Shown here: piece by piece, positions 1 to 9,976 of the stretch
Layout: every line of letters begins with the position of its first letter
Numbering within the stretch: position 1 is the first letter of the stretch
DNA from: an uncultured Allobaculum sp.
GTDB taxonomy: Bacteria; Bacillota_I; Bacilli_A; Erysipelotrichales; Erysipelotrichaceae
NCBI GenBank assembly: GCA_910577085.1
Contig: CAJTLE010000001.1
Coordinates: forward strand, 728-64,727
Reading direction: 5' to 3'
DNA: 64,000 bases
Made by a program: the position numbers and the translations under genes
The notes under the pieces: model-generated
Seen by the model: only the letters and a program-made list of their open reading frames with translations
What the model was told of the DNA's origin: nothing
Database searches by the model: none

Positions 1-12
1 CCTCCTGAACAT

Positions 13-1617
13 ATGTATAATTTGTTAAAACATTATTATACATATCCTTGTTTTTCAAGAGGGAAAGCGGGTTATAGCTTTATATGTAGCGATGTCTTCG
101 TTTTGATTAGCGCTTCCTGTGTATATAGTGGGGAAATCAGGTTACAAAGCCGTTACTATCTCGACAACAATCTGGCCCGCAAGATTCATACCCGCATCCG
201 TGATTACTCCATGATGGGTGAAAAGCCAGAAGCCGCCCGTTATTTTGGCGGTCTGTTTGATCAGGAGATGACCTCATTTTATAAAGATGCGGTCATGGAT
301 TCATATGGTCTGGATCTGAATGTGGATATCCTGACGGCGATTGAAAAAGAAGCCGAACTGCTTGGCCTTTACAAGGATGATCCGGATGAAATGCGTCTGA
401 TGGATCAGTATGTCCGCGATGTTATCCGCACGACCCGTGATCTGAGCTGTCCATTTATTGAAACGCCGCTTGGAGAAACCAGAGCACCGGTTTACAGCTG
501 CACCTATAACACTTCGCTCATCCCGCCAAAGGGCGACGATTCGCTGCGCAGCCGCCTGATTCAAAGTGAACTGGCCAATCTAGGCGGCACTCCGGATGAT
601 GACATTCCAGAAAACATGATCATGTTCTACAAGTCGTTCTATGGTCTGCGCGCCAATGAGCTCAGCAAGTTCGCTCCGCCGATTCATGACGAAACCCATG
701 ACCGGCCAGGCGGCGAGTACTTCAAGGCTTACTACGAACTCGTGGATGGTCTGTTCCCGATTCCAGGTAAGAGTTCTGGCATCAGCCCGCATCTGGATAA
801 ATGGTGGCATCTGGTTACCAAAATGCCGGATCTCGATGAAGGCAACCAGGACAAACTGTTCCATGAACAGTTTGCGGCTTTCTTCTGGGCCATGTTGATT
901 GGACTGATTGAACTCGATCAGATTTCGGATGAGCAGTGCCAGTACAAGATCAACCATGTGCGTCTGCGCTTAAACAATGATCCGCGCCTGAAATTCAACA
1001 GCAGCACACTGGTGGTTTCCAATGGAACACCATGCGACAAGCTGTATGAAGTTCTCGATGCGATCTCGATTTATCCAGCCCTGATTCACCGCATTCTGGA
1101 CTACGTCAACAATGAAATCGCCTATGACATCAATATGAATGGCGATCTGAAAGATCGTCTGTTATGGGCCAATCTGAAGAAATTTGAAATTGAAGAGCCG
1201 CTGATTGGTGTCAACCACGAAAAATCAACGTGCATTCTGGATCTGCCGCTGCTGCTGCGTAAGTCCAACAACACGAAGACTTACTTTGAAGAAGATTCCA
1301 TTGGTCTGTTGAAAGTGATTCTCGATGAGCTCAGACATTACTTCGAACTGAATATCAATGAAAAAGATGCGCTCAATGACTACATCGATTTCATCAAGAC
1401 AGAATATGCCCGCAGTCTTGTCAGCTGGGAAAAAGAAGAACAGGCCATTCCGGCAACGCTGACTGGTTCTTTATTTAACAGCTGGTATGAAACGCTGGCT
1501 CAGTACTTTGAAGATCTCGGCGCCCGTCGAGATGCCAGAGAGATCCGTTCGAAAGCGGAAGAACTCAAACAGAAGTACGACGCACAAAAGGGAAAAGGTG
1601 CGGATGCAAACGCCTAG
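13..1617 (+). CDS. Uncharacterised hydrophilic protein, component A of the four-gene operon. The 5' end is uncertain: the ORF is open to the window edge, and the first ATG after the AT-rich leader is at 211.
   Basis: A 534-codon ORF. Nt 1-140 are AT-rich with rare codons and a TATAAT at 16-21, and coding-like composition starts near 150. No Walker A or other family motif recognised. Gene B follows 30 nt downstream with its own SD. Confidence 0.6.
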   Translation: MYNLLKHYYTYPCFSRGKAGYSFICSDVFVLISASCVYSGEIRLQSRYYLDNNLARKIHTRIRDYSMMGEKPEAARYFGGLFDQEMTSFYKDAVMDSYGLDLNVDILTAIEKEAELLGLYKDDPDEMRLMDQYVRDVIRTTRDLSCPFIETPLGETRAPVYSCTYNTSLIPPKGDDSLRSRLIQSELANLGGTPDDDIPENMIMFYKSFYGLRANELSKFAPPIHDETHDRPGGEYFKAYYELVDGLFPIPGKSSGISPHLDKWWHLVTKMPDLDEGNQDKLFHEQFAAFFWAMLIGLIELDQISDEQCQYKINHVRLRLNNDPRLKFNSSTLVVSNGTPCDKLYEVLDAISIYPALIHRILDYVNNEIAYDINMNGDLKDRLLWANLKKFEIEEPLIGVNHEKSTCILDLPLLLRKSNNTKTYFEEDSIGLLKVILDELRHYFELNINEKDALNDYIDFIKTEYARSLVSWEKEEQAIPATLTGSLFNSWYETLAQYFEDLGARRDAREIRSKAEELKQKYDAQKGKGADANA

Positions 1618-1647
1618 AAAGACTGATTCAGAAAGGGGATTTCGAAC

Positions 1648-3585
1648 ATGTTGAATGTTCTGATCATGAACCGCGCGACGCGTGATTCCTTTCTGGAGCA
1701 GCCGGTTCTATATGCCAACATCGTCAATCGGCCGGATATCGAAATCTGCGGCTGGATTGAGTCTGGATCCACGCTGGAAACGGCTCTGCCGGCGATCGAT
1801 GAACTGGTCGGGCCCCATCAGAAATGGCGGGCCATTGTGATCAGTTATGAAGACGATGGCGTCATGGAAAAATTCGCCACTGATCCGGAAAATCCATTTG
1901 ATTTTGACGGCAGTCCCTTTGCCTTATACCAGCAAAACCCCATTCCACTGGTCAGGCTGACGCATCTGCTTAAAGGTCTGCCGCCGCTGGAAAAGAGATA
2001 TGTCGAAGAACAGATTGTCGACAAGACCGGGATGCCAAAGATGGTGTTTACCGAGCAGCCGCCTGATGAAGCGGTGGCCATGCAATGGAAACAGTTATCC
2101 GACCTGTATGAAAACGATCTGCGTGAACCCGAGCAGATCGTTCTCATACGCCGCCGTCTGAAACCCAAAGACCCATCCAAACGCCGTCTGGAAAATATGT
2201 GGAGCCTGCCTGAAGAAATCGAAAGTTCCCGGTTTGCGGACCGCAATGGCTATGCGCCAGGATGCCGGTTTCTGTGTGTGGACTACACCCGCCAGGGAAA
2301 ATACCAGACGATTCAGGAAGCCTTTGAATTCTGGGTGAACAGTACGCTGATGGCCACGATTGAAGTGGATGGCAGCACCTTACAGGCTGGAAGACTGTAT
2401 CGTCTGGAGACGCGGATGGACAAAAATTCGCTGACCAGTCTGTTTCGGATTCTGGATGCCAGGCTGACTAAAGTACAGAGCAGTTATCTTGAACATTCTG
2501 CCCGGCTGAAAGAAAAGCAGGCCAGTCAGGAGGAACGACTGCCGGCTTATCAGGTGACGCTGCCTGAACTGCATCTGGAAACGGGATCGTTTGATGAAAG
2601 TGAAGAGATCTCCCTGAACTTTGCGATGTTTCCGGCCCGTAAGATGGACCCGATTCATGAGTGGCAGGAATATCTGACACTTGTCCAGCAGGAATATCAG
2701 GCGTCGATTAAAAAAATCAGCCGCTCGTTTGACCGGGCGGCAGAGAAATTCCATGACAAGATGCATGTCAGTGTCGAAAAGGTCGAACTGCTCAATCAAT
2801 GGCAGAAAGAAGATCTGGCCGAAGAACTCCAGAAAGAAAAGCTTGCCTGGATGGAAACAGGCGCCAGTCTGCCGGCCACGGGCATTGTCCGCAATCAGAA
2901 ACTTCAGAAAACGGATGATACGGTCCGCTGGCTGTTAGAAAACCAGGCTGATCGGCGCGATGTTGGTTTCGTAGAAGGCAGCCTGCTTGTCATTGGGCTG
3001 CTGGTGGGACTCATTGGATTTGTTTTTCCGATTCAACGAAACCAGCAGGCCTGGGCGATGATTTTCTGGATTGTGCTGACCCTGCTTGTCGTCTGTGGTG
3101 TGGGATGGCTGAGTCTGTTTTTGTGGAACCGTCAGGCAAGAAATCTGGCTGCTTCGTATCGTGATGAAATCCGACAGGCTGCAGCTGCGATGAACTCGGA
3201 TACCAATGGCTTTGCGAAATATTTAGAGCAGGCCGTTAATCTGGTTCGCGGCTCGCAATATCTGCGCCTGAGCGACACGAAAGCATTGATGGGCCAGGTG
3301 CAGGATCAGTCCACCCTCTTTAACAACCACCAACAAGTCGATCTGCTGACGGATCTGCAAAATAACCTGCATACCCTTCAGGCTGCCAACCATATCTTGT
3401 TGGAGGAAAATGAATTTCAAAGGGCATTGCCAGAACAAAACTGGGAAGATGTGGATGAAAAAAATCTGCTTTTGATTGAAGAAGATCCCGTCCAGGTGGA
3501 AGTCAATCACTCCGGATTTCATGTTGAAAGCCCATGGCCGTTTGTCAGCCGTCTGATTGTGGAACGGGAGGAGCTGTATGAATAA
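1648..3585 (+). CDS. Uncharacterised membrane protein with a central TM hairpin, component B
   Basis: ATG 1648 is preceded by an AAAGGGGA SD; 645 aa. Two adjacent hydrophobic helices (SLLVIGLLVGLIGFVF and AMIFWIVLTLLVVCGVGWLSLFLW, nt ~2970-3125) lie between a ~440-aa N-terminal and a ~150-aa C-terminal hydrophilic region. No catalytic motif recognised. Confidence 0.75.
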   Translation: MLNVLIMNRATRDSFLEQPVLYANIVNRPDIEICGWIESGSTLETALPAIDELVGPHQKWRAIVISYEDDGVMEKFATDPENPFDFDGSPFALYQQNPIPLVRLTHLLKGLPPLEKRYVEEQIVDKTGMPKMVFTEQPPDEAVAMQWKQLSDLYENDLREPEQIVLIRRRLKPKDPSKRRLENMWSLPEEIESSRFADRNGYAPGCRFLCVDYTRQGKYQTIQEAFEFWVNSTLMATIEVDGSTLQAGRLYRLETRMDKNSLTSLFRILDARLTKVQSSYLEHSARLKEKQASQEERLPAYQVTLPELHLETGSFDESEEISLNFAMFPARKMDPIHEWQEYLTLVQQEYQASIKKISRSFDRAAEKFHDKMHVSVEKVELLNQWQKEDLAEELQKEKLAWMETGASLPATGIVRNQKLQKTDDTVRWLLENQADRRDVGFVEGSLLVIGLLVGLIGFVFPIQRNQQAWAMIFWIVLTLLVVCGVGWLSLFLWNRQARNLAASYRDEIRQAAAAMNSDTNGFAKYLEQAVNLVRGSQYLRLSDTKALMGQVQDQSTLFNNHQQVDLLTDLQNNLHTLQAANHILLEENEFQRALPEQNWEDVDEKNLLLIEEDPVQVEVNHSGFHVESPWPFVSRLIVEREELYE

Positions 3586-6500
3586 TCTCCAGCAGCTTTT
3601 CCTTCATCTTCTCTCCTGTATCGCCGGCTTATATGCCCTGTGCGGACTTGGACAGCTGTATCCGCTCAAAAAGCCCAACCGTCCTTTGGAAGGGGTCATG
3701 GTACTGGTTGCCATCGGGTACAGTCTGATTGCTTCCTGGGTGCTGCTTGACCATGCCAGTCAGCTGGTGGCCATGCTTCCAGACTGGCTCTCTCACAGCG
3801 CCGGCATTGATCTGCCTGCACTGTCGACAATGTTTCTGTTTGGCTATGCGCTGGTGCGTTTTGCGGTCGATGGAATTTTGCGCGGCCTGCAGTCACATAA
3901 TGAGCTGTTGGCGTTTTGCGCCCTTGATTTTTATGAACAGGATCCCACCAGCCGCCAGTGGCATTTAAAACAGGGGCTGGCCGGATTTCAGCGGTTCATT
4001 CGATGGACGTACCTGGCCGCTCTTATTATGAGTGTTCTGTTTTTAACGATCGTCTGGACCTGGCCGAATGCCCAGATTGGCTGGGTCAGCTGGCTGCCAG
4101 TCGCTTTGTTGCCGATCTTGATGGCGATTAGAGTCTATCTGGATGGCCTGCCGCCCTTGCTGGATCCAAAACGAAACTACAGCGGATCTGGCATTGATGC
4201 GCTTGATATCTGCAACTATTATGGTCTGCGCTCTGTATATGAAGAAAACCTGCCGGAGCCCTTATTGACCTCGACCGCAGGCTGTGATCTGCGGCATCTG
4301 ACCAGTGCGATCAATCTGGTCGAAACCTGGCGCAAAAATGGCGGTCAGATCGAACGGATTGCCGCTGAGTATTATGCCCTGCATCAGCGTTTTGCCAAAA
4401 GCGATCCGGATTGTGCCGCGGCTTCGATTGATCTGCTCAAAGGCCGCAATGTAGTGTTCTTCAACCCGTTTTACCGGGATCTCAGTCTGTATCTGACGCT
4501 GCCACTGGCTTCGACTTTACTGGCCGGGGATCATGTCCTGATTCTTTGCGGCCGCAAAAGTCTGGAACAGCCGGCTAGAGAATGGATTGAAGAAGCAATT
4601 GGTTCGCAGACGCGCACGGAACACCTGTGGACGATACGACAGATTGATGATCAGGATGAACCTTGTCAGATCGGAATTATGACGTTTAACCAGATCTACA
4701 ATCATGCCGTTTTGAAAAACAATCAGGACTTCTTCCATAAAGTGCAGTTTGTCATTTTGCTTGAGCCATCTAAACTGATTGGAACCAGTCAGACGGCTCT
4801 GTCCATTATTGCCTCCAATCTCGGAGAGCCTGACCGCCGGCCGGTTTATGCGGTATGTGACCGTCAGACCACGGGTCTGATCGATACACTGTCGCATGTT
4901 TTAAAAAGTGAATTCATTGAAGCCTGTGCCAGTCCGGTTCCACATTGCCTGTACACCGCGATGTTCTGGGATGCCGATGGGGAATTCCGTCGTCAGGAGT
5001 TTTTTGATCACCAGAGCCGGTATCTTGGCAATGGTCTGGAACTGGCCGCTCTGGCCATCCGCTCCCAGGTGCCGCAGGTCAAATGGATTGGGGAAACCAA
5101 AGTTCCACTCAAAGATCTGCGCCGGATTGCCGGGCAGAGCTATCAGAACCTGTGCCGGTTCATGAACATCAAAGTCAGCCAGAATGCGTTGTTTGAGCGG
5201 GTCGATTTTGTCGACAGCCTCTGGCAGCCCGAAATGGAAAAACGGCCATTTCTGATTGTTGAAGATGAATTCAACAATCTCTTTGCGACGCTTCATCCGT
5301 ATCTGGCCAGAGGAACCGGACAGTCCTTTGTCCATATGCTTTCGGAAAACTATCTGCTTCGCGATTACATGAAGGAAAACCGGGAAGTGTTCGCAAGCAA
5401 TCCCCAGGCTGTTCCTTCCTTGATTCCGGATTATGCAAGAACCGAACGCAATACGATTTTGAAACTGCTTCTGTTGATGAACATGAAGCCAGTCGATGAA
5501 GAAACCATCGCCAGAGAACTGCGGATGACGGGCATTTTAAACCGGGATCTCGAAAACGAAATCAACCGGCTGGTCCGAAAGTATACGCCGGCCGATGAGA
5601 CGATCTTTACGATCAACCGCCGCAAAAAACTGGTGAACGAATTTACTCAGAAAGTGGTCGTTGAATATTCGATCAGTGATGAAGCTTTCAGCCAGTACTT
5701 CCAGTCCTCGTTGAAAAATGCCTATTTTGTCGTTGAAGATGAACTGGCCAACCGTGAGTATCTCGATGCCAGACTGTATGGGCAGATCGTTCAGGCCATT
5801 TTGCCAGGGCAGTTTCTGACGTATGGCGGCAAGTATTATCAGGTTCATTCCATCAACCCGATGGATGGCGTGATTCTCCGACGGGCTTCGGATCTGTATG
5901 AAGGCCGTGAGTACTATCGCCAGAAGCGGATTTATACCATTACCACCACTCCAGCCAATGAGACAGAAAGTCCGTCCAACGATGCGATAAATCCAACGGA
6001 TGAGATCACGGCGGAACTGGTCAGCTTCCAGCAGATCGGTTCCATTGAACTGCGTCAGGAACGCCACAATTTTTCAGTGGAAACCCCTGGGTATCTGCGG
6101 CTGCATGATAACCATGATCTTGAACATGGTGTGCCTTACACCTTCCAGCAGGAAGGCCGACAGGAGATTTTCAACCGCTCGTATTTAAGTAAGACACTGT
6201 TACGGGTGAAGATGCCGGAAATGGATACACAGGATGCTCTGACCTTCTGTGTCCTGCTCAATGAACTGTTTCGCAGTATCTATCCGGAAAACTGGCCATA
6301 TCTTTGCGCAGCAGCAGTTTATGATCCACAGGATGTCGATCCATGGATGAGCTATCTGGTTCCTCAGGTCAAGGGAAACTTTGAAGAGGGCGAAGTGCTG
6401 ATCATTGAAGACAGTGAAATGGATCTGGGACTGATTGATTCATTCTGCCGAAATTTTGACAGCCTGATGGGCATTGTCTATGACTATCTGGACTGGCTGG

Positions 6501-6835
6501 AAAATCCACAGGTGGAAAGCAGAGAAGATACAATCTATGAAGTGGATTTCGATGCGTTGATTGAAGAGATCAGGGAACGTAAAAAAGAAGAAGCCAAAAA
6601 GAAAAGCTTTTTCGCCCGCTGGAGAGCCAGACATTCCAAAAAGGACAAAGACAAGCCAGATCAAGCGGATTCAAATTCCGATGATGGTCCAGGCCATAGT
6701 GCAGATTCAAAACCTGACCAGCCAAAAGAAGAGGACACTTCGGCCTCTGATGGCAAGACCACACAATCCAAAACGGAACAACTAGTCAAATTTACAAGAC
6801 CCGTTCCGGATGATTTAAATCAGCCAAATTCTTGA
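3578..6835 (+). CDS. Uncharacterised 1085-aa polytopic membrane protein with a large cytoplasmic body (possible degenerate helicase-like core) and a disordered charged tail, component C
   Basis: The track ORF is 3557-6835. ATG 3578 is preferred because GGAGG lies ~8 nt upstream and the start overlaps the gene B stop (ATGAATAA). About 5 hydrophobic helices occur in the first ~190 aa. No GxxxxGK[ST] anywhere. The C-terminal ~95 aa are rich in K/E/D/S. Confidence 0.75.
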   Translation: MNNLQQLFLHLLSCIAGLYALCGLGQLYPLKKPNRPLEGVMVLVAIGYSLIASWVLLDHASQLVAMLPDWLSHSAGIDLPALSTMFLFGYALVRFAVDGILRGLQSHNELLAFCALDFYEQDPTSRQWHLKQGLAGFQRFIRWTYLAALIMSVLFLTIVWTWPNAQIGWVSWLPVALLPILMAIRVYLDGLPPLLDPKRNYSGSGIDALDICNYYGLRSVYEENLPEPLLTSTAGCDLRHLTSAINLVETWRKNGGQIERIAAEYYALHQRFAKSDPDCAAASIDLLKGRNVVFFNPFYRDLSLYLTLPLASTLLAGDHVLILCGRKSLEQPAREWIEEAIGSQTRTEHLWTIRQIDDQDEPCQIGIMTFNQIYNHAVLKNNQDFFHKVQFVILLEPSKLIGTSQTALSIIASNLGEPDRRPVYAVCDRQTTGLIDTLSHVLKSEFIEACASPVPHCLYTAMFWDADGEFRRQEFFDHQSRYLGNGLELAALAIRSQVPQVKWIGETKVPLKDLRRIAGQSYQNLCRFMNIKVSQNALFERVDFVDSLWQPEMEKRPFLIVEDEFNNLFATLHPYLARGTGQSFVHMLSENYLLRDYMKENREVFASNPQAVPSLIPDYARTERNTILKLLLLMNMKPVDEETIARELRMTGILNRDLENEINRLVRKYTPADETIFTINRRKKLVNEFTQKVVVEYSISDEAFSQYFQSSLKNAYFVVEDELANREYLDARLYGQIVQAILPGQFLTYGGKYYQVHSINPMDGVILRRASDLYEGREYYRQKRIYTITTTPANETESPSNDAINPTDEITAELVSFQQIGSIELRQERHNFSVETPGYLRLHDNHDLEHGVPYTFQQEGRQEIFNRSYLSKTLLRVKMPEMDTQDALTFCVLLNELFRSIYPENWPYLCAAAVYDPQDVDPWMSYLVPQVKGNFEEGEVLIIEDSEMDLGLIDSFCRNFDSLMGIVYDYLDWLENPQVESREDTIYEVDFDALIEEIRERKKEEAKKKSFFARWRARHSKKDKDKPDQADSNSDDGPGHSADSKPDQPKEEDTSASDGKTTQSKTEQLVKFTRPVPDDLNQPNS

Positions 6836-6902
6836 GGCAGATTCGTTATAAGCAAAACCAACAACACCAGTCAGCAGCACAACAGGAAAGGATGGGGTAG
6901 AG

Positions 6903-7826
6903 ATGAACGAGGAAGAAAAGACACCATTTGATACCACTGCCTATCTGCGCTTTGGAAAAGATCAATTGCCTGACTATCTTCGACCTGGAAAGCTTCGTGA
7001 ATTTCTGGAAGACAACGGCTATGCCGGCAATCCGTTAACCAAAGCCCGCAAAGCCCCGCAGACCGTTTTCAAGGATCTTGAAATGACGGACGAAAAAGGC
7101 CAGCCGATTCTCGCTTCTTCCTGTGATTTCTGCGGCCAGCGCATCAATGGTGTTTCTTACCAGCAGTTAGCCGATGGCCGGATCCGCTGCAATGAGTGTG
7201 CTTCTACAGCCATTGAAAACCTTGAAGAATTCAAACTGCTCTTTGAACAGTGCATCCAGCTGATGCAGGATTTCTATCAGGTGACTTTCCAGGTTTCCCT
7301 CGATATCCGGACGACAGACAGCGATGAAATTGCCCGCCGGACCGGAATGAAAGGACCGGAAGGAATGGGCAAAAAAGTAAGAGTGCTTGGCTTTGCGCAG
7401 AGTCAGAATGGCAAACATACGGTCGTTATTGAAAATGGCAGCCCAAGACTGGCTTCGATTGATACGATCGTCCATGAAATGACCCACATCTGGCAATCCA
7501 TCTCCTGGAATGAAGCAGAGTTTGAGCGGCTGTACCACATGGGAAACAAGAAGAAAAATGCACTGGCCAGGCTGCTCGTGCGTGAAGGCATGGCCGTCTG
7601 GTCGGCCCTTCAGTTTCTTTACCTGATTGGAGAGACAAGTTATGCGTCTCGTCAGGAAGCTCTGATGGAAAATCGCAAAGATGAATATGGCCTTGGTTTT
7701 CTGTTGTTTCGCGAGCAGTTTCCTTTGATCCGAACGACTGATTTCCTGTATCGGACACCATTTACCGTCTTTCCGCCGATTCCACCAGAAACGATCCGAC
7801 AGATTGTCAACCATATCTTTGCCTGA
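6903..7826 (+). CDS. Zinc-ribbon plus HExxH (gluzincin/MA-clan-like) metallopeptidase, component D
   Basis: ATG 6903 follows a GGAAAGGATGGGG SD. CDFC-x18-CNEC (C74, C77, C96, C99). HEMTH at residues 191-195 (nt ~7473), with Glu 33 residues downstream in the REGMAVW context typical of HExxH...EGxAxW/Y peptidases. Confidence 0.7.
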   Translation: MNEEEKTPFDTTAYLRFGKDQLPDYLRPGKLREFLEDNGYAGNPLTKARKAPQTVFKDLEMTDEKGQPILASSCDFCGQRINGVSYQQLADGRIRCNECASTAIENLEEFKLLFEQCIQLMQDFYQVTFQVSLDIRTTDSDEIARRTGMKGPEGMGKKVRVLGFAQSQNGKHTVVIENGSPRLASIDTIVHEMTHIWQSISWNEAEFERLYHMGNKKKNALARLLVREGMAVWSALQFLYLIGETSYASRQEALMENRKDEYGLGFLLFREQFPLIRTTDFLYRTPFTVFPPIPPETIRQIVNHIFA

Positions 7827-7877
7827 ATCTTTCCTATGGAAAGACCAAAACGAATTGAATAAACATCAATCAAATTG

Positions 7878-7916
7878 AGCACCTGATTTTCCGCCCGGAA
7901 AGTCAGGTGCTTTTTG
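7878..7916 (+). terminator. Rho-independent terminator of the four-gene operon
   Basis: The arms AGCACCTGATTTTCCG / CGGAAAGTCAGGTGCT (16 bp, 1 mismatch) are followed by TTTTT. Confidence 0.8.
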
Positions 7917-8339
7917 TCGTGAAGGTCTGACAGAAAATGAAAGGGCTGTGCGAAAAAATTATCAAATGCCGGGCTTAATGTTTCTACTTTATCCATATTG
8001 GACATTTTGATTCCATTTTTACGTTGTCCATATGGTCACGATGGGTTGGGGGTCGGATAGAGAAGACAGAATTTTTAAAAAGTCAAAACGGGAACGCTTC
8101 ACCCTGCCGCATAAAGACAACATTAAGGGTAAAAAAGGCGTACCTTTGGGAGAATCGTAAAATCAGAGCACTGGTGAATAATGTCCGGATCAGATTCAAA
8201 GAAACTGAATGATTTGAGTGATGACAAATAAGGGAATTAAATTGTGAACAGAATGTCAAAATCCATGTAAATGCGAATCCGGAAGGGGGCAGGGATGCTA
8301 TACTTTGCCTGACAGATGAATAATTAGAGGTAGAAAAGA

Positions 8340-9899
8340 ATGTCAGACATTAAACCTGTAGACTACGAATCATTTAAGAAGAAGATTCCTCTTTTTAAAG
8401 AGAAATCTGAAGAGTTCTATAACAAAACTATGAACATGAAAGACTATAAGTCTTTCTCTGGAAAATACGGAAGCTATGCTCAGCGCGGCGGCAAAAAGAA
8501 CATGCTTCGTTTACGTATGACCGCTGGTAAAGTCACTCCAGATAAACTGCACTTTGTTGCGGATATGGCAGATAAATATGCGATCGAACCGATCCATTTT
8601 ACAACCTGCCAGACCATCCAGCTCCATAACCTCGACCTCGATGCGGTTGTGGATATCATGGACAAAGCTCTCGATCACAAGATCGTCTGGTATGGCGGCG
8701 GCGGAGACTATCCACGCAACGTCATGTGCTCCCCACTTTCCGGCGTTGAAGAAGAATACTTCGATGTAATGCCTTATGCGGAAGCATCCGCAAACTTCCT
8801 GCTGGACTTCATCGATAAGGAAAAAATGCCTCGTAAGCTGAAAGTCGGCTTCTCGAATAACCAGAAAAACGAACCACATGCCACTTTCCGTGACTTAGGC
8901 TTTGTCGCAAGACCAGATGGCAAATTTGATGTGTATTGTGCCGGTGGTCTGGGACGCGATCCAAAACTGGGTGTCCTGGTTGCAGAAGATGTAGATCCAA
9001 ACGAAATTCTCTACTACATCGAAGCCATGATCCTGATGTTCCGTGCATATGGAAACTACGAAAACCGTGCGAAAGCCCGTACCCGCTATATGCAGGATGT
9101 TTTAGGTGCCGATGGCCTGCGCAGAGAATTCGCAAAATATCTGGCTCAGGTCAAAGAATCCAAAGACCTGACGCTGACCGATATCGAAATTCCAAATATC
9201 ACCAAAAAAGGTGAAGGAGAACCTCTCGAAGAATCCTTCATCGTTCATAAACAGAAACAGCCTGGACTGTACGCTCTGCTCTATCATCCACGCGGCGGTA
9301 TTGTAACCAAAGAAACAGTTCGTGCTCTGTCTGATGCCATTGATGGCATGGAAGATGTAGAAGTTCGTCTGAAACCAGATGAAGGCAGCTACATCATCAA
9401 CCTGACTGCGGATGAAGCCCGTAAGATCCTGTCGATCATTGAAGCGGATGCAGCAACCAACGAATTCGAAACTTCTGAAGGCTGCATCGGTGCAACCATC
9501 TGCCAGGTTGGTCTGCGTGACTCTCAGGGTGCTTTAAAAGCAGTTCTGGATGCAGTCAAAGAAGCTGGCGACATTGCAGATAACGCTCTGCCTCAGATTC
9601 ATATTTCCGGATGCACATCCAGCTGTGCTGCCCATCAGATTGCTCCAATTGGTTTCCGCGGTAACTTAAAAGTTGTCGATAAAAAACCTGTTCCTGCTTT
9701 CTCGATGTTTGTAGAAGGCGATGATATTCAGGGCAATGAAAAACTTGGTGAAGAAGTCGGAATTATCGCGGAAAAAGATCTGCCTGCATTCCTGGTTAAA
9801 CTTGGCCGGGATATCACCAAATCGGGTCTGTCTTTCGAAGAATGGACAGATGCCAATCCAAACGGTCTGGTTGAAGAAGCACAGGAATTCTTCCTTTAA
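8340..9899 (+). CDS. Sulfite/nitrite reductase family hemoprotein (siroheme/[4Fe-4S] type)
   Basis: 519 aa. Carries the cluster/siroheme cysteine motifs CX5C (CIGATIC) and CX3C (CTSSC). Siroheme biosynthesis genes lie nearby. Confidence 0.75.
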   Translation: MSDIKPVDYESFKKKIPLFKEKSEEFYNKTMNMKDYKSFSGKYGSYAQRGGKKNMLRLRMTAGKVTPDKLHFVADMADKYAIEPIHFTTCQTIQLHNLDLDAVVDIMDKALDHKIVWYGGGGDYPRNVMCSPLSGVEEEYFDVMPYAEASANFLLDFIDKEKMPRKLKVGFSNNQKNEPHATFRDLGFVARPDGKFDVYCAGGLGRDPKLGVLVAEDVDPNEILYYIEAMILMFRAYGNYENRAKARTRYMQDVLGADGLRREFAKYLAQVKESKDLTLTDIEIPNITKKGEGEPLEESFIVHKQKQPGLYALLYHPRGGIVTKETVRALSDAIDGMEDVEVRLKPDEGSYIINLTADEARKILSIIEADAATNEFETSEGCIGATICQVGLRDSQGALKAVLDAVKEAGDIADNALPQIHISGCTSSCAAHQIAPIGFRGNLKVVDKKPVPAFSMFVEGDDIQGNEKLGEEVGIIAEKDLPAFLVKLGRDITKSGLSFEEWTDANPNGLVEEAQEFFL

Positions 9900-9948
9900 T
9901 CAACAGACTGAAACGTTCAGACCAGAAAACTGAATTTGAATCTCATCG

Positions 9949-9976
9949 AAAGGCTTCGTGAAGGCGAAGCCTTTTT
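9949..9976 (+). terminator. Rho-independent terminator after the reductase gene
   Basis: The hairpin AAGGCTTCG-TGAAGG-CGAAGCCTT is followed by a T-run. Confidence 0.7.

Follow-up and report, generated by a model that had tools for sequence, protein, structure and literature searches.

What is the block of large, tightly coupled genes that opens a 64-kb stretch of DNA from an uncultured Allobaculum sp., and is it complete? The sequence examined was this stretch at its full length (hereafter the window). The feature in question occupies the + strand of window 1-7916, where a first-pass annotation made from the letters alone had described a four-gene operon of large orphan proteins, A to D, and proposed it as an undescribed system. 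Window 142-7912 is almost certainly the downstream portion of an Allobaculum (Erysipelotrichaceae) FtsZl1-vWA cassette, in which the gene for a tubulin/FtsZ-like GTPase (FtsZl1) follows that for a von Willebrand factor A (vWA) protein. The complete operon has five genes in the order vWA-FtsZl1-B-C-D, and open reading frame (ORF) A is the remnant of the disrupted tubulin-like GTPase gene and no gene of its own. The operon is thus not a four-gene unit, because A is an FtsZl1 remnant and the unit extends upstream into the rest of FtsZl1 and the vWA gene, as intact alleles at related loci (cited by L numbers) show. The window copy is laid out as follows.

Window 1 to 141, no strand: foreign sequence at the FtsZl1 breakpoint, an insertion end or rearrangement junction, with no alignment to the intact alleles L001-3 and L005.
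Window 142 to 1617, + strand: 3´ remnant of the FtsZ-like-1 (Tubulin_2) gene, codons 683-1173, identical to L001 8495-9970.
Window 1648 to 3585, + strand: gene B, 645 amino acids (aa), described from an AlphaFold2 (AF2) model, a Kyte-Doolittle (KD) hydropathy scan and a profile search.
Window 3578 to 6835, + strand: gene C, 1085 aa counted from the ATG, described from an AF2 model, Foldseek and alignment to the homologue P0004.
Window 6903 to 7826, + strand: gene D, 307 aa, described from motif conservation and alignment to P0004.
Window 7877 to 7912, + strand: intrinsic terminator ending the operon, a 16-pair stem and 4-nt loop followed by TTTTTGT.

The intact alleles were found through an exact-sequence look-up of B among metagenome contigs, which differ from the window at one or two positions over 13.4 kb. 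On contigs L001, L002, L003 and L005, the gene that stops at window 1617 encodes 1173 aa, and the L001 copy (6449-9970) matches PF13809, Tubulin_2, with E 1.7e-59 over aa 6-340. The window agrees with this intact gene from position 142 (codon 683) onward, bar one or two single-nucleotide polymorphisms (SNPs), and the break at position 141/142 falls at codon 682/683. Only the C-terminal part is left; the copy has lost the GTPase domain and the greater part of the central region. ORF A had been taken for a complete gene (13 or 211-1617) encoding a soluble protein; it is instead the last ~490 codons of the 1173-aa FtsZl1, a tubulin-like GTPase gene, and is open upstream with no stop before position 13. 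Exact look-ups of ORFs 13-1617 and 211-1617 returned no record. FtsZl1 itself has its tubulin/FtsZ-like GTPase domain at the N terminus and continues through an extended central region to a C-terminal domain. Of 64 homologues, 62 retain the G-box motifs GLGGxG and AGGTGSG. Homology of the C-terminal part extends over 68 loci, and the length of 1173 aa fits the family of Makarova & Koonin.

The same junction at 141/142 was present in an independent sample (L004, whose contig stops at window position 101, 40 nt into the foreign part), so the breakpoint is real and no one-off assembly error. Since the window differs from the intact alleles by only one or two SNPs in 13.4 kb, the break must also be very recent. 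Window 1-141 is AT-rich, has no relation to the intact FtsZl1 allele, and ends in ...GTGTATATAGTGGGGAAATCAGG at the breakpoint; blastn found no second copy of it in the window or the fetched loci. Most likely it belongs to one end of a mobile element.

In the intact alleles a vWA gene lies upstream of FtsZl1, outside the window (L001 3920-5635; PF00092, 27.1 bits against a cut-off of 23.8). The encoded protein has a Sec signal peptide, a DNSGS metal ion-dependent adhesion site (MIDAS) motif in which DxSxS is intact, and a beta-rich stalk. Where the gene is unbroken (L005, L006 and L088; 794-819 aa), these are followed by one transmembrane (TM) helix and a basic, Arg/Ser-rich cytoplasmic tail. 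The tail carries Arg/Ser/Gly/Lys repeats (L006 ~4150-4359) and the linker of C is acidic and disordered (window 6640-6835). As the charges are opposite, a contact between the vWA tail and the C linker is possible, to judge from their composition.

The coupling of B, C and D described in the first-pass annotation held throughout. In the ORF list of the window all junctions and all three ORFs were re-found on the + strand at the coordinates given before. A and B are spaced by 30 nt with AAAGGGGA preceding the start of B, the stop of B overlaps the start of C (ATGAATAA, preceded by GGGAGGAG), and C and D are spaced by 67 nt with GGAAAGGATGGGG upstream of D. Each of the three genes thus has the Shine-Dalgarno (SD) sequence claimed for it, and the predicted 16-bp-stem terminator was located at 7877-7912. 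The impression that B and C belong to no recognised family was likewise borne out: Pfam, NCBIfam, PADLOC and PHROG gave no model at cut-off for the A fragment, B, C or D. By sequence, B, C and D matched nothing above threshold in the PDB, and no solved structure was matched by any of the four families of the cassette. The absence of a Walker A motif, which had been noted by eye, extends to the B and C families, neither of which has a conserved copy.

We then asked whether the gene set travels together. C relatives were present in 119 of 185,579 species genomes, scanned at one genome per species, and 80 loci were kept. The hosts are mostly gut or rumen Lachnospiraceae, Oscillospiraceae and Erysipelotrichaceae, with some Peptococcaceae. 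About 60 gut Bacillota species share the order vWA-FtsZl1-B-C/D. Counting the loci whose contig reaches far enough, FtsZl1 precedes B in 61/62 and vWA precedes FtsZl1 in 53/54, so that the co-occurrence check proposed in the first-pass annotation came out in favour of a conserved core. The core genes share one strand, and the median gaps between them are 28, 24 and -11 nt. The exception is a metagenome-assembled genome of Peptococcaceae (L077 6951-21941), which has B and a fused C/D; the 6.9 kb upstream contain neither an FtsZl1 nor a vWA gene. This indicates that the B-C/D pair can exist alone. At this locus an ORF of >2970 aa follows B-C/D.

The same collection showed that C and D are not usually separate. 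The 89 homologues of C found are mostly 1400-1450 aa long, and in one of them, P0004 (1453 aa), C aligned over residues 5-1064 (38% identity) and D over residues 1153-1442 (43% identity, E 3e-90). Among the related loci in which both parts were found, C and D are fused in 67/74 and split in 7/74, and the split point is an acidic low-complexity linker. C and D are the halves of what is in most genomes one protein, which consists of an N-terminal membrane domain, an MrfA-like superfamily 2 (SF2) helicase fold whose ATPase motifs are degenerate, the acidic linker, and a Zn ribbon followed by an HExxH…E zincin. The earlier description of a giant C and a dedicated protease D as separate proteins therefore needs revision, as they form one polypeptide in 67 of the 74 loci. 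The split is common to the window species and two other Erysipelotrichaceae (L006, from Erysipelotrichaceae bacterium 51-3, and L007) at 70-90% identity. Because it is kept in three species and D has its own ribosome-binding site, it represents a stable gene fission and not a fresh mutation. A recent nonsense or frameshift artefact splitting C/D was rejected on the same grounds.

Modeling of C from 75 sequences (AF2, pLDDT 82.5, pTM 0.72) gave four to five TM helices at residues about 3-190, a cytoplasmic body that includes a beta-rich region (678-945), and a disordered acidic tail from about residue 1020. The best Foldseek match of the body was 6znp_A, MrfA (E 1e-21, 823 columns, TM-score 0.55 on the target). 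Next in rank were Hel308, Hjm, the helicase domain of Pol-theta, Brr2 and Mtr4, and the top 50 were all SF2 helicases. In the model, C has the two-RecA-domain core and the C-terminal accessory domain of the MrfA/DUF1998 SF2 helicases. C had been called polytopic, which is correct for its N-terminal TM helices; the rest is the helicase fold. The position of motif I is occupied by NPFYRD (N296-P297-F298-Y299-R300-D301) in 73-75/75 sequences and that of motif II by LEPS (L-E396-P397-S398); these replacements of motifs I and II are kept in 70-75/75 sequences. Two arginines are retained at the position of motif VI. No conserved Walker A was found among the 75 homologues, and a Pfam search of C gave no DUF1998 match. 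With motifs I and II missing, an active helicase was rejected. The model is instead consistent with C being a pseudo-helicase, with a conserved pocket that would not hydrolyze ATP.

MrfA (YprA; 6znp), the Bacillus subtilis DUF1998 SF2 helicase, matches the body of C over about 820 columns, past both RecA-like domains. Unlike MrfA, with which it shares 10% identity and no sequence-level match, C has NPFYRD for motif I and LEPS for the DExH box, carries an N-terminal polytopic membrane domain and is tethered to a protease. A conserved Cys quartet was found only in the Zn ribbon of D, beyond the disordered linker, and no four-Cys cluster was evident by eye in C of the window protein.

D begins with a small helical N-domain, followed by a Zn ribbon (C74, C77, C96 and C99; CxxC-x18-CxxC) and a metallopeptidase. 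H191-E192-x-x-H195, E228 (in EGMA) and the four Cys are invariant in 38/38 sequences, which upholds the earlier call of a Zn-ribbon metallopeptidase, and E228 would from its spacing be the third zinc ligand. D reached no curated peptidase family at threshold, its best match being DUF6782 (15.4 bits against a cut-off of 27), and D had no PDB sequence match. Across the family, sub-threshold matches to zincins recurred (DUF6782 in 32/38, DUF6055 in 22/38 and BSP in 15/38; family-wide best E 4.5e-05). D is a divergent gluzincin-type (MA-clan) peptidase, apparently active, behind a Zn ribbon. Its nearest Pfam families, DUF6782 and DUF6055, are uncharacterised. The arrangement of D, with a Zn finger directly upstream of HExxH, is that of the zincin plus zinc-finger proteases (SprT/Wss1-like, DA1-like and IrrE/ImmA M78). 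One member of the D family gave weak matches to DA1-like and Peptidase_M78 proteins, far below thresholds. By analogy with such proteases, the zincin of D may be activated in a ligand- or DNA-dependent manner.

The model of B (pLDDT 88.5) opens with an alpha/beta domain (1-257), continues in long helical bundles and closes with a small beta domain at the C terminus. The KD scan placed a 2-TM hairpin at about 438-494, in agreement with the TM hairpin noted earlier, and the cytoplasmic domains of B are large. Profile searches with B returned 650 representative clusters at E<=1e-3 with uniform lengths of about 640-720 aa. The combined AlphaFold and Foldseek check that the first-pass annotation had suggested thus resolved C as an MrfA-like SF2 fold and left B without a significant match. 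The weak fold likenesses of B are with long, helical proteins that insert into membranes and with dynamin-like proteins. ClyA-type (E 0.03) and SMC/Rad50-like fold matches were discounted as driven by long helices.

Operons that combine FtsZl1 and vWA genes with lineage-specific membrane proteins have been catalogued, and a membrane-remodelling machine was proposed (Makarova & Koonin 2010, PMC2875224). In the same study, conventional FtsZ was normally found in addition to FtsZl1, from which a non-division membrane role was proposed, and FtsZl1 was without recognisable T6-H7 and C-terminal polymerisation elements (PMC2875224). The set is therefore not undescribed, as had been thought. That reading was to be refuted by homology to an already characterised machinery, and a catalogued system is indeed matched, but one that has never been experimentally characterised. 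Three traits of FtsZl1-vWA operons were found here: an FtsZ-like domain at the N terminus with a GGGTG(S/T)G-type loop (in the intact allele), an adjacent MIDAS vWA gene and lineage-specific membrane proteins. The GTP-binding domain is absent from the window copy (codons 683-1173 only), and the window locus is a degraded member of this kind.

The closest published layout is that of Ruminococcus lactaris, listed as B13 of 739 aa, vWA of 732, FtsZl1 of 1136 and B5 of 678 (Additional file 5 of PMC2875224), along with B12, a membrane-associated zincin with a Zn finger (PMC2875224). The R. lactaris ATCC 29176 genes RUMLAC_01526-01530 and the cassette described here are alike in order and sizes (here vWA about 795 aa, FtsZl1 1173, B 645 and C+D 1085+307). 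B is probably family 'B5' of Makarova & Koonin, as judged on gene position and length only, and the fused C/D would correspond to their 'B12' from its position, size and description. Unlike the R. lactaris operon, the cassette here is without B13/'F707', its C/D is split in the acidic linker, and in the window FtsZl1 is cut.

Tubulin plus coiled-coil genes and extracellular-vWA genes of Firmicutes and Actinobacteria have also been assigned to GAP1-N2 GTPase-centric conflict systems (Kaur et al. 2020, PMC7159879). The two roles that the first-pass annotation had guessed at, sensor/effector defence and membrane remodelling, thus coincide with the two published hypotheses for such cassettes. Like the GAP1-N2 systems (PMC7159879), the cassette has a long-tailed tubulin protein, an outward-facing membrane vWA, a membrane-proximal layout and variable effectors including a 2-TM protein. 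Unlike them, it has one tubulin gene and not two, and no TRAFAC GTPase with Zn ribbons in or beside it, while B, the pseudo-helicase-zincin and the FtsK-like ATPase are not described in the text of Kaur et al. (PMC7159879). No P-loop GTPase was found by Walker A scan in the cassette proteins or in the Pfam tables of the window proteins and the L001 flanks, although the libraries used hold no GAP1 model. With that limit, membership in GAP1-N2 was rejected, as neither the GTPase nor GAP1 was seen.

The cassette also resembles the anti-phage system Zorya, in logic only: ZorAB (a membrane motor with a long cytoplasmic tail) and ZorC/ZorD (a helicase-nuclease) likewise combine an envelope-facing sensor, a long helical element in the cytoplasm and, at the membrane, a partner with a helicase fold. 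The two are not homologous; the cassette is without a MotAB-like stator, and C is without ATPase motifs or a nuclease. The central region of FtsZl1 matched the PADLOC ZorA tail at E 0.05, chance level.

Across the window species and its closest relatives the cassette carries at least six separate truncating lesions. Besides the FtsZl1 breakpoint (window and L004), C is broken in L005 (JGI sample 3300015207) by a different foreign sequence at window ~4912, codon ~445 (L005 13266-13338, CCTTAGATAATCCCAAAAGTAGAAC...), after which the contig ends. A 5-bp deletion, GGCAG, that removes one unit of the direct repeat ATGGCAGGGCAG frameshifts the vWA gene (L001 ~5579; also L002 and L003), yielding ORFs of 571 aa and 156/250 aa, whereas the undeleted gene of L005 encodes 794 aa. 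Elsewhere (P0251/P0252, P0254 and P0263 in the 90% clusters of B and C), B is divided into 296+343 aa on a single contig or cut at 236 aa with a divergent tail, and C ends early, after 922 aa, on 20 contigs. The isolate Allobaculum sp. JKK-2023, whose proteins fall within the 90%-identity clusters of C and D, has FtsZl1 in two pieces of 845+333 aa (L088 4505-8040). Apparently intact cassettes are confined to the more distant L006 and L007. In L088, a resolvase and insertion sequence (IS) elements (DDE_Tnp_1 and IS21-like) lie after gene D. Compared by eye, the first ~17 bases of the L005 foreign sequence are alike at ~12/17 positions to the reverse complement of the window foreign end. Given this loose resemblance, the two may be the ends of one IS element at two sites, and a common IS element behind both breaks is possible. 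The two foreign ends gave no significant local alignment to each other, and neither had an exact match in the metagenome or viral contigs scanned.

Because independent lesions recur, the cassette is dispensable in these Allobaculum populations and perhaps counter-selected. With FtsZl1 cut at codon 682/683, the window copy is very probably non-functional. That the region is no more than a decaying pseudogene remnant without present function, its B, C and D open only because the break is recent, we consider somewhat more probable than the opposite. The one or two SNPs in 13.4 kb against intact alleles point to just such a very recent break, no promoter-like site was found in window 1-400, and other strains carry different lesions. 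The occurrence of B-C/D alone in L077 pulls the other way, so that residual activity of B-C-D remains conceivable. This explanation concerns the state of this copy and is compatible with the functional reading that we favour below.

Beyond the core, other genomes carry further genes directly downstream of C/D, on the same strand and tightly coupled to it (among L008-L079). An FtsK/SpoIIIE-like ATPase of ~1170 aa, or its remnant, follows C/D in 37/80 loci, with gaps of -31 to +39 nt in 33 of the 37. A transglutaminase-like gene is found downstream in 18/80, a RyR/RCK-like gene (RyR/TrkA_N-like, ~600-640 aa) in 17/80, a ~700-aa protein with a weak Castor/Pollux match in 15/80, TIR+HD (TIR+HD_3, ~990 aa) in 9/80 and TIR+LRR (BspA-type) in 4/80. 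Examples of such downstream genes are L013 14310-17828 (Lachnoclostridium sp. An131), L060 14192-18472, L049 14451-18040 and L016 14720-18781. The window lineage carries none of these kinds of gene. In PADLOC, domain-level matches were obtained only for these non-core FtsK-like and TIR neighbours in other genomes. The cassette is thus a conserved core with a variable effector shell. Upstream, a minus-strand tRNA-Leu(CAA) (L001 3170-3256) lies between the operon and another gene pair. These two genes overlap (L001 1-2882) and resemble a McrBC-like restriction pair; one encodes 870 aa and is cut off where the locus ends, and the other encodes 829 aa that include a PDDEXK_7 nuclease domain. A tRNA-Leu and a PD-(D/E)XK gene next to the cassette suggest an accessory or defence-island setting in L001.

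What might such a cassette do? Its topology places the vWA domain outside and the remaining components at or under the membrane. Our tentative preference, which falls short of probable, is for a membrane-sited sensor/effector module of the immunity type. Through its TM helix, the outward vWA/MIDAS domain would signal an event at the surface or in the envelope. Beneath the membrane FtsZl1 would assemble in a GTP-dependent manner, and this assembly would serve as threshold switch and scaffold, gathering B and C/D. The helicase-like body of C/D would bind a ligand without ATP hydrolysis, probably a nucleic acid entering at the membrane, and in many genomes the FtsK-like pump might aid this entry step. 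Ligand binding would license the tethered zincin to cleave a partner, and cleavage would release an effector, either the 2-TM hairpin protein B or, elsewhere, the TIR-HD, transglutaminase-like or RCK-like neighbours. The proposal in its fullest form is more doubtful: an unrecognised membrane-embedded immune system of gut Bacillota, in which the FtsZl1 polymer couples a vWA sensor to a protease on an ATPase-dead helicase sensing nucleic acid, with output via the 2-TM protein and the FtsK-like, TIR-HD, transglutaminase-like and RCK-like modules.

The immunity reading is favored by the variable effector shell around a conserved core, by the rare and patchy spread of the cassette, by the tRNA-Leu and PDDEXK_7 genes in L001, by the IS elements beside the cassette in L088 and by the independent assignment of tubulin and vWA genes to conflict systems (PMC7159879). 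The independent recurrence of lesions in near-identical strains is also what a costly accessory function would lead one to expect. Several observations weigh against it. Separate systems that only share an island with the cassette could account for the TIR, HD and transglutaminase-like neighbours, and the window lineage (window, L006 and L007) is without FtsK-like, TIR, HD and transglutaminase-like genes. Nucleic-acid binding by C is a guess, because its helicase fold is without motifs I and II. B has no significant fold match in the PDB or BFVD, the best being alpha-pore-forming toxins of the ClyA type, and over its hairpin it stayed below threshold for the 2-TM pore-forming SLATT effectors (NF033634 SLATT_1, E 0.0026, 17.7 bits against a cut-off of 41, residues 442-517). 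In PADLOC-DB v2 the A fragment, B, C and D had no match, and vWA and FtsZl1 gave chance-level matches only. No cassette was found by tblastn in the phage and plasmid collections, and a phage- or plasmid-borne element was rejected for want of a match in either. The recurrent inactivation fits equally well the loss of a surface structure that serves as phage receptor or immune target, and the membrane-remodelling reading of Makarova & Koonin explains the same membrane-centred layout. Finally, the searchable literature holds no experimental study of any FtsZl1 system.

Allobaculum is a mucus-associated gut bacterium, a setting that a vWA adhesin would suit. This is one of the attractions of the membrane-remodelling or cytoskeletal machine of Makarova & Koonin, in which FtsZl1 polymers, anchored by B and C/D and joined to the extracellular vWA adhesin, would deform the membrane to give vesicles, tubes or contacts between cells or with mucus, without any part in immunity. 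The FtsZl1 G-box is intact, all other components are membrane-bound, and B has its weak fold likeness to membrane-inserting and dynamin-like proteins; that conventional FtsZ is usually also present (PMC2875224) agrees with such a role as well. We nevertheless regard it as rather unlikely. FtsZl1 is without the recognisable elements of polymerisation (T6-H7 and C-terminal; PMC2875224), and the machine has no part for a protease-tethered pseudo-helicase or for the TIR/HD/FtsK-like neighbours. The cassette is also rare, patchy and repeatedly broken, which excludes a housekeeping morphogenetic role and leaves an accessory one possible.

TIR and transglutaminase-fold domains are known toxin domains in Firmicute secretion loci. 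A trans-envelope translocation device, in which an FtsK/SpoIIIE-type ATPase and C/D would move DNA or protein (such as the TIR or transglutaminase-like toxins) with the vWA protein as target-contact adhesin, so as to serve secretion, competition or DNA transfer and not immune sensing inside the cell, could draw on the ATPase translationally coupled to C/D in 37/80 loci, on polytopic and bitopic membrane partners and on a surface vWA with a signal peptide, but it is improbable: three species of the window lineage keep the core at 70-90% identity without the FtsK-like gene, which is thus not essential to the core, C/D has a helicase fold without a P-loop and so cannot be the motor, and no other type VII or conjugative signature component was seen, although no systematic search was made. 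The likelihoods given here to the immunity, remodelling, translocation and pseudogene explanations overlap and are not shares of one whole, and that of the pseudogene concerns the window copy only.

FtsZl1 is the FtsZ/tubulin superfamily's most divergent branch, and its function is unassigned fifteen years after its description. To the published catalogue the present analysis adds, as far as the literature searched shows, the pseudo-helicase fold of 'B12', the FtsK-like/TIR-HD/transglutaminase-like shell, the C/D fission and the recurrent inactivation, and it defines a four-gene core (vWA-FtsZl1-B-C/D) in about 60 gut Bacillota species. The cassette is compact, which makes immunity versus membrane remodelling directly testable; the window copy is broken and is not the copy to study. 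If the immune-system reading is true, the FtsZl1 branch would have its first assigned function, and a pseudo-helicase would be put to a new use, as the licence for a protease.

The remainder of the window bears out the earlier impression of an accessory-looking region on a core background. At gathering thresholds Rfam gave no family in all 64 kb. The gene after the terminator, at 8340, encodes a NIR_SIR sulfite reductase. From there to 64000 the window holds housekeeping genes: besides the sulfite reductase, a Peripla_BP_2/FecCD/ABC uptake system, a Macro-domain protein and sirohaem synthase genes, further MnmA, RecD2, AlaRS, S15, PNPase, an M20 peptidase, TrmB, thioredoxin and a Mur ligase, and also YbeY, DAGK, Era, RecO and an NFACT/RqcH-like protein.

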